Assembly: GCF_018389705.1 (NCBI RefSeq)
Contig: NZ_CP065581.1
Coordinates: forward strand, 1,003,495-1,035,494
DNA: 32,000 nt
Direction: 5' to 3'
Source: Mycoplasma mycoides subsp. capri
GTDB taxonomy: Bacteria; Bacillota_I; Bacilli_A; Mycoplasmatales; Mycoplasmataceae
The position numbers and the translations under genes are program-made. Under the pieces are notes generated by a model. It was not told the origin of the DNA, did not search any database, and saw only the letters and a program-made list of their open reading frames with translations. The number at the start of each line of letters is the position of its first letter. Within the stretch, counting starts at the first letter, position 1. Below are positions 20,001 through 20,326 of this stretch, piece by piece.

Positions 20001-20049
20001 ATAAAACCTCTAAAAATAACACTGTATAGTTTAATTTTATAATTTATGG

Positions 20050-20067
20050 TTTTTTTTTTTTTTTTTT
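20050..20067 (-). repeat. Homopolymer T18 (A18 on the gene strand), 50-67 nt upstream of the gene B start codon
   Basis: Counted directly: t at 20050, ten t at 20051-20060 and seven t at 20061-20067. The homologous position upstream of gene D (24932-24937) has T6. Confidence 0.9.
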
Positions 20068-20326
20068 ATGACGACTTTACAGCCTTTTAAGGTTAAAAAC
20101 TTGTATAAAAAGCCAGTTTTTTTAGTAAAATTAGTATCTTTTGTGTTTTTTTGTATTTCTAAATAAAAATAAAAAAACAATAAAACACTTATTATCAATA
20201 GTCGTATTAATTAGCTATTTTTAGAGATTTTTATTTTGCAGAGCTTGTATTATTCCTTTCTTAAAAAGAAAAATTTTTACAATAACTGTGTTTTAAAAAG
20301 ATAGTTAAAATAACAAAGTAGATAAT

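Follow-up and report, generated by a model that had tools for sequence, protein, structure and literature searches.

A length-unstable poly(A) tract as a candidate contingency promoter of a helix-rich protein operon in Mycoplasma mycoides subsp. capri

In a 32-kb stretch of genomic DNA from Mycoplasma mycoides subsp. capri (Mmc), hereafter called the window and read with TGA as Trp, an uninterrupted run of 18 A's lies directly upstream of the inferred -10 region of a two-gene operon, B-A, which encodes two large helix-rich proteins. The run changes in length between assemblies that are otherwise nearly identical, it is kept up throughout the species, and the genes behind it are under purifying selection. 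Probably, the tract acts as a switch or dial of expression that is set by slippage and that belongs to a known type. Our favoured reading, to which we assign a probability of roughly 55%, is that of a contingency promoter like those of the vlp genes of M. hyorhinis or of the genes for surface proteins in M. yeatsii, with a length of about 17 A's that is maintained and probably expression-competent, and with an output that would alter when the length shifts. An effect of tract length on transcription, and the direction of this effect, are what we infer.

The mechanism that we envisage would work as follows. The poly(A) element, located directly upstream of the -10 region at about -40 to -23, would fill the place that is usually taken by a -35 hexamer. 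To our knowledge, Mollicutes are without mismatch repair, and for this reason a run of such length is expected to gain and lose bases at high frequency, so that slippage in the tract would give rise to populations of mixed tract lengths. About 17 A's would be the selected, expression-competent length, judging from the species-wide upkeep of the tract and from the occurrence of the same length ahead of a further operon, Y-X. Departures from this length (12, 13 and 19) would change the output of the promoter, either in an ON/OFF manner as in vlp or in a graded fashion as in sabA of Helicobacter pylori.

Position and instability of the tract

On the gene strand, i.e., the minus strand of the window, the region upstream of B reads GTCGTCAT-(A)18-CCATAAATTATAAAATTAAAC...TAGAGGTTTTATATG, and that upstream of D, the first gene of the paralogous operon D-C, reads CCTTTTTTTCAT-(A)6-CTAAAAGTAATAAAATTAAAT...TAGAGGTTATTATG. 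Both sequences and the A18 tract had been quoted in an initial annotation of this DNA and proved exact upon re-reading. The annotation was also right in placing the tract in the B-A promoter region, since its 3′ end lies 10 nt upstream of the conserved hexamer TAAAAT. B-A needs a promoter of its own, because a strong intrinsic terminator behind gene C (Table 1) isolates it from D-C transcription. A promoter scan found no canonical two-hexamer promoter on the gene strand across the whole 364-nt spacer between C and B. Just upstream of the tract, short A runs follow each other at distances of 10-11 nt (AAAA-6 nt-AAA-8 nt-A18), an arrangement that is conserved only in part. We also considered whether the T18 of the plus strand could be the tail of a plus-strand terminator, but no hairpin precedes it, and the terminator scan finds that of gene C only.

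The tract stands out from its surroundings. The window, which has a G+C content of 23%, contains 76 A/T runs of 7 nt, seven of 8 nt, none of 9-17 nt and one of 18 nt, as compared to about 26 runs of at least 9 nt and about 0.03 runs of at least 18 nt that are expected from a first-order Markov model of the window. Long A/T runs are thus strongly avoided, and A18 is a true outlier. This indicates that the avoidance of long runs is strong and genome-wide, which fits an organism that lacks mismatch repair.

Evidence for instability comes from lineages in which several near-identical genomes are available. Two assemblies of the same lineage as the window (GCA_000339035.1, locus L001, and GCA_000590435.1, locus L002) were retrieved by anchoring on a TGA-free lipoprotein gene. 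In this PG3-like lineage, the B tract has 18 A's in the window, 17 in GCA_000339035.1 and 12 in GCA_000590435.1. Over 9.8 kb, the sole differences between the three are two single nucleotide polymorphisms (SNPs), the B tract and a (TA)n repeat at position 25135 that is known to be phase-variable and has 12, 10 and 13 units, respectively. In the GM12 lineage, the tract has 16 A's in the original genome, 17 in at least ten derivatives and 13 in a Logan short-read assembly. Aligned with a GM12 derivative over 13.4 kb, the Logan contig is free of mismatches and differs only in the lengths of two tracts, that of B (13 vs 17) and that of the Y promoter (19 vs 17). Likewise, two GM12 genomes agree over 21 kb in every base but one A of the B tract, apart from three positions that are given as N in one of the assemblies. 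The A8/T8 runs nearby and the six A's of the D promoter are constant across the compared assemblies. Changes in tract length within a clonal lineage, as they are characteristic of vlp-type switches, are thus found here (18/17/12 and 16/17/13 in near-identical genomes). The initial annotation had called the tract intrinsically hypermutable, and the fact that it is one of only a handful of sites at which otherwise identical assemblies differ strongly supports this view.

The tract across strains, a third operon and related promoters

Six further independent strains were obtained by anchoring on the adjacent PAP2 genes, with LicA homologues also used as anchors, and in all eight independent Mmc strains were compared. 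The B tract has 18 A's in the window and in CP065582, 17 in 95010 and CP065579, 16-17 in GM12, and 16 in CP065577, JAUYYY01 and CP068010. An uninterrupted tract of 16-18 A's is therefore present in 8/8 strains, despite a dS of about 0.1 between them, and the shortest B tract in any assembly has 12. The initial annotation had proposed such a comparison across related strains as a check, and the tract lengths read from these assemblies are not all the same.

In six strains, GM12 and 95010 among them, a third operon, Y-X, is inserted between B-A and D-C and encodes proteins of 753 and 751 aa. The Y-X promoter has the sequence GAGCTCTGC-(A)17-19-CTGTAAGTTTATAAAATTTAAG, with the tract ending 11 nt from TAAAAT and with flanks unrelated to those of B. 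The presence of two uninterrupted tracts of about 17 A's, where runs longer than 8 nt are otherwise absent, argues for direct selection on the tract. Y-X has no counterpart in the window, where it was deleted (compare locus L033, 16142-20861). The C-B spacer of the window is a chimera, in which 20364-20228 matches the C-Y spacer of GM12 and 20237-20001 matches its X-B spacer. CP065582 has the same deletion, but with A17 at the junction. Since the deletion junction coincides with the poly(A) tract of the Y promoter, recombination or slippage at such tracts may drive the gain and loss of operon copies.

When the promoters of B, Y and D in Mmc are compared with their B-like and D-like counterparts in M. 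feriruminatoris, the -10 block TA(T/A)AAAT is the only block common to all of them, with TAGAGG and then ATG following 20-25 nt beyond it. In M. feriruminatoris, the B-like promoter reads CAT-A7 in one strain, and in three strains this place is taken by 17-20 nt of A-rich sequence with interruptions (e.g., AAAAAAGGAAAAATAAA). The A6 of the D promoter is unchanged in all 13 Mmc loci that cover the site. A separate change near this promoter was seen in LS483508.1 (GM12-derived, ~8950-8987), where 5 nt, AAATT, are deleted directly after the D-C -10 (ATAAAATTAGAATG as compared to the usual ATAAAATTAAATTAGAATG). Scans of genome contigs with a B/D alignment, and with the exact promoter pattern allowing a variable gap, gave no match.

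Within the eight strains, the interval from -22 to +90, which comprises the promoter core, the 5′ untranslated region and the signal peptide, hardly varies, and many SNPs are found in the 190 nt upstream of the tract. Two allelic types of the mature B and A proteins exist (GM12/PG3-like vs 95010/JAUYYY-like), which are only 47-48% identical (see also the supplement of PMC3053259), and yet the two types have an identical promoter, 5′ untranslated region and signal peptide (window 15465-20000 compared with loci L045 and L042). This suggests either cassette replacement or a strong diversifying history in the mature proteins, and the combination of an invariant leader with divergent mature proteins is typical of variable surface-antigen cassettes. 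The dN/dS values of B/A and Y/X (0.26-0.44 at a dS of about 0.1) are indistinguishable from those of D/C (0.25-0.55). Almost all strains have intact copies of B, A, Y and X, and the only disrupted copies among the strains examined are gene A (164 + 572 aa) and Y (700 aa) of CP065577.1.

As for the proteins themselves, A resembles C and B resembles D in sequence, such that the locus consists of two tandem two-gene operons, D-C and B-A, with a gap of 9 nt between the stop codon of B and the start of A. All four proteins have an N-terminal hydrophobic anchor, and the remainder is helical. A and B match the NCBIfam family TIGR04523 (Mplasa_alph_rch, "helix-rich protein") with 737 and 708 bits at a cut-off of 270, and the profile is covered over positions 1-745 of 745. 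By these sequence features, A-D are four TIGR04523 helix-rich membrane proteins. A lipobox cysteine is absent from the N-termini MKKLIVLLTAISVFSAAGISYVGYKN and from those of the paralogues, which sets these proteins apart from the variable lipoproteins of the vlp systems. Pfam gives only coiled-coil matches below threshold for these proteins. Protein searches with B, using the full length or the C-terminal 166 aa, returned no match, and the exact A-D sequences were absent from the collection searched. Exact look-ups of proteins encoded nearby gave Mmc as the organism. The counterparts in strain 95010 are MLC_8970-9020 (supplement of Thiaucourt et al. 2011, PMC3053259), and literature searches by assembly accession gave nothing of relevance, and those by locus tag turned up no paper that refers to the genes in this way.

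Table 1. Features discussed in the text (positions refer to the window, except for the last row)
Feature	Position	Strand	Description
Gene A	15465..17729	-	754 aa; second gene in B-A operon; open reading frame in code table 4
Gene B	17739..20000	-	753 aa; open reading frame in code table 4; N-terminal membrane anchor or signal peptide, all-helical coiled coil
Ribosome-binding site TAGAGG	20007..20012	-	followed by B start codon at 20000-19998
Inferred -10 region TATAAAAT	20034..20041	-	hexamer TAAAAT at 20034-20039
Poly(A)18 tract	20050..20067	-	T18 on plus strand; about -40 to -23 from inferred transcription start of B-A
TCGTCA	20069..20074	-	-35-like hexamer of the initial annotation; directly upstream of tract; 4/6 to TTGACA
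Remnant of Y-X upstream region	20228..20364	-	AAAATAAAAA at 20228-20237, the position of the Y poly(A)17-19 elsewhere
Intrinsic terminator after gene C	20329..20354	-	10-pair stem and T run; 0.0 expected in shuffles
Gene C	20365..22617	-	750 aa; paralogue of A
Gene D	22641..24881	-	746 aa; paralogue of B
D-C promoter (promoter scan)	24916..24944	-	TTTTCA, 17-nt spacer including A6 (24932-24937), TAAAAT
Vmm/Vmc-type promoters TTGACA-T-(TA)n-AT	25128-25160, 25750-25778, 26716-26746		
Paralogous variable-lipoprotein genes	25204-25620, ~25839-26465, ~26807-27463		downstream of the (TA)n promoters
Disrupted copies in CP065577.1	11288-13551 and 18412-20514		gene A split; Y shortened

Competing readings of the tract

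Several observations weigh against a contingency promoter whose active length is about 17 A's. In a tract-length scan of the B promoter, a match of 9/12 (TCGTCA and TAAAAT) is obtained with 5-7 A's and one of 8/12 (TCGTCA and the weaker TAAATT) with 12-14 A's, and no two-hexamer pair is found with 15-21 A's. The modal lengths thus lack a -35/-10 pair, and about 17 A's would be OFF if a -35 were required. Furthermore, the A7 and the interrupted stretches of M. feriruminatoris imply that an uninterrupted tract is not needed for promoter function. Part of the scatter between 16, 17 and 18 could be homopolymer sequencing error, and the short values of 12 and 13 come from one draft and one short-read assembly. 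The alternative -10 TAAATT, which lies 3 nt after the tract and would put the promoter ON at 12-14 A's, was rated low, as the Y promoter reads TAAGTT at this place and has no -35.

The main rival to our reading, which we hold to be unlikely but would take more seriously than the other alternatives, is that the A-rich stretch is a fixed element, be it a substitute for the -35 or a rigid or curved UP-like structure of about 17 bp, and that its length polymorphism is tolerated with little regulatory consequence. Many Mollicute promoters have a weak -35 or none, which counts in favour of such an element. The interrupted A-rich stretch at the orthologous site of M. feriruminatoris is of similar total length, the lengths in independent strains are tightly clustered at 16-18, and the short A runs just upstream of the tract are spaced at 10-11 nt. 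However, an interrupted tract would serve this purpose without mutational cost, and yet Mmc keeps two uninterrupted ones. Furthermore, the D promoter and one M. feriruminatoris strain work with A6-7, and variants with 12, 13 and 19 A's reach majority in cultures.

The initial annotation had itself proposed a switch, but of a different kind, with TAAAAT as -10 and TCGTCA as -35, in which a tract of about A6 with its 17-nt spacer is ON and the expanded A18 turns B-A off. We consider this improbable, although the arithmetic behind it holds. The distance between TCGTCA and TAAAAT in B is 17 nt only at n=6 and reaches 29 nt at n=18, a two-hexamer promoter of 9/12 arises only at n=5-7, and the (TA)n promoters of M. 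mycoides do use -35 spacing. The paralogous D promoter moreover has the same architecture with A6. TTTTCA-17-TAAAAT is indeed present at D and scores 9/12, but the region yields five such matches and shuffles of it yield 5.0. Matches of 9/12 are therefore at chance level in this base composition, and the D match alone carries no weight.

Other observations are at odds with the proposal more directly. As -35 elements, TCGTCA and TTTTCA are conserved neither in the Y promoter, which has a long tract with no -35-like hexamer next to it, nor in the M. feriruminatoris orthologues, and TCGTCA reads CCGTCA in CP065577. The predicted ON length of 5-7 A's was never observed. No tract of fewer than 12 occurs in the eight strains and their clonal derivatives, and to reach the ON state, the tract would have to shed a net 5-11 bases at the least. 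The supposed expansion by 12 nt from A6 is not peculiar to the B copy of the window, given the 16-18 A's in 8/8 strains and the 17-19 at Y-X. It thus is not recent, and speaking of an expansion may even misstate the direction of change. Lastly, the idea that A18 silences B-A conflicts with the intactness of all four genes (B, A, Y and X) in nearly every strain and with a purifying selection on them that equals that on D/C. Silenced genes should decay, which these do not, and a long tract as the OFF state is thus unlikely or at least unproven.

A technical origin of the length differences, by homopolymer miscalls or slippage in the library polymerase chain reaction (PCR), in a tract that is stable in the organism, is very improbable: differences of one base do lie within the consensus error of 454, PacBio and Oxford Nanopore (ONT) sequencing, and Thiaucourt et al. 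urge care with such differences (PMC3053259), but consensus differences of 4-6 bases are unlikely to be errors, the Logan contig has one tract shorter (13) and the other longer (19) and hence no systematic bias, at least ten GM12-derived assemblies from one project all read 17/17, and switching by the (TA)n repeats, which vary along with the tract, has been established by experiment.

A more far-reaching form of the contingency promoter, which we put forward only tentatively, would see an uninterrupted tract of about 17 A's as a Mollicute promoter module that replaces the -35 and is read by RNA polymerase only at or near one length. Such a module might recur in distant clades, namely in the vlp genes of M. 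hyorhinis, in 28 genes of M. yeatsii and in two Mmc operons. By the same tentative reasoning, B-A and Y-X, as alternative pairs of helix-rich membrane proteins, could switch independently of each other, with D-C (A6) being constitutive. If true, this would allow for combinatorial variation of a surface structure that does not consist of lipoproteins.

Known promoter switches and the wider locus

The vlp switch of M. hyorhinis is reportedly the subject of studies by Yogev in 1991 and by Citti and Wise in 1995. The initial annotation referred to homopolymer-controlled promoters as an established mechanism in mycoplasmas, and rightly so, as the summary of the vlp poly(A) switch attests (PMC10502178). 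As with vlp, the Mmc promoter has an uninterrupted poly(A) of about 17 nt directly upstream of the -10 with frequent insertions and deletions, a conserved cassette of promoter and signal peptide precedes divergent surface proteins, and paralogues each have their own tract. There are differences, however. Mmc belongs to the Spiroplasma/mycoides group and M. hyorhinis to the hominis group, and, unlike the vlp lipoproteins, the Mmc products are membrane-anchored, helix-rich proteins of about 750 aa that are encoded in two-gene operons. Furthermore, no canonically spaced -35 is evident at the prevailing length of the B tract. A close phylogenetic neighbour is M. yeatsii, where in strain GM274B A or T tracts of 14-17 nt precede 28 surface-protein genes (Calcutt et al., PMC4408338). 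The tracts are of the same type and length range as those of Mmc, and their role is a proposal in both organisms.

The (TA)n promoter-spacer switch of Vmm and Vmc is said to have been described by Persson in 2002 and by Wise in 2006. Three promoters of this type lie in the window, 5-7 kb away from the A18 tract (Table 1). Their repeats have n=12, 10 and 11 in coordinate order, which results in spacers of 21, 17 and 19 nt. In Vmm/Vmc, n=10 gives the 17-nt spacer, and only the middle lipoprotein gene is thus at canonical ON spacing. The B tract resembles these switches in that it is found in the same organism and the same neighbourhood, in the change of promoter length by slipped-strand mispairing, and in varying in the same assemblies. 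It differs from them in being a mononucleotide tract without a good -35, whereas the TA repeats of Vmm/Vmc lie between perfect TTGACA and TATAAT hexamers. Poly(TA) motifs can be recognised in every sequenced genome of the mycoides cluster (Calcutt et al., PMC4408338), and the promoter repeats that two genome papers give for the M. mycoides cluster are poly(TA) upstream of lipoprotein genes only (PMC3053259, PMC4408338). For Mmc, poly-TA and GC(T)7-20 tracts are the only ones that Thiaucourt et al. name (PMC3053259). What is new here is a candidate mononucleotide promoter tract in the mycoides cluster, and its location ahead of TIGR04523 operons that do not encode lipoproteins.

For a graded effect of tract length, the T-tract rheostat of sabA in H. 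pylori (PMC4081817) offers a parallel. There, too, an A/T homopolymer (9-28 nt in sabA) lies beside the core promoter and varies in length between strains and clones, and it is proposed to act by realigning the core promoter with upstream A-rich, UP-like elements, which would result in graded output. However, the sabA tract lies upstream of a recognisable -35, whereas the B tract covers the -35 position, and the organism and its RNA polymerase are unrelated.

Strain GM12 of Mmc is a goat pathogen and the JCVI-syn1.0 chassis. If our reading of the tract as a contingency promoter is true, this organism would possess a second, mononucleotide class of unstable promoter, which controls large, strain-variable membrane proteins other than lipoproteins. 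This would add an extra layer of surface variation that is relevant to vaccine and attenuation work, and it would account for the fact that resequenced clones differ at exactly these tracts. Tract length would furthermore provide a simple handle on the role of the TIGR04523 proteins. The tract also touches on the more general question of how, in organisms that possess hardly any transcription factors, a promoter can be served or gated by a run of some 17 A's located at the -35 position.

In M. mycoides subsp. mycoides, the loci next to licA do not contain the helix-rich operons, and tblastn shows no remnants of them there. Listed homologues are MSC_1025-27 and MSC_1050-52 for this subspecies, and also MCAP_0860-64 (supplement of PMC3053259), and the two MSC groups must lie away from the licA-side site. 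Downstream of licA, this subspecies has a PAP2 gene, an AAA ATPase gene, a gene for an S8 peptidase of 746 aa, and IS elements (loci L004-L013 and L023), and these fill the site where Mmc has its lipoprotein cluster and the operons for helix-rich proteins. Of the AAA gene, Mmc retains at this site only fragments of 33-74 aa. The PAP2-family gene beside A (14177-14995) is cut to 272 aa in the lineage of the window; its product is 401 aa long in most of the other Mmc strains, including GM12 and 95010, and 329 aa long in two assemblies.
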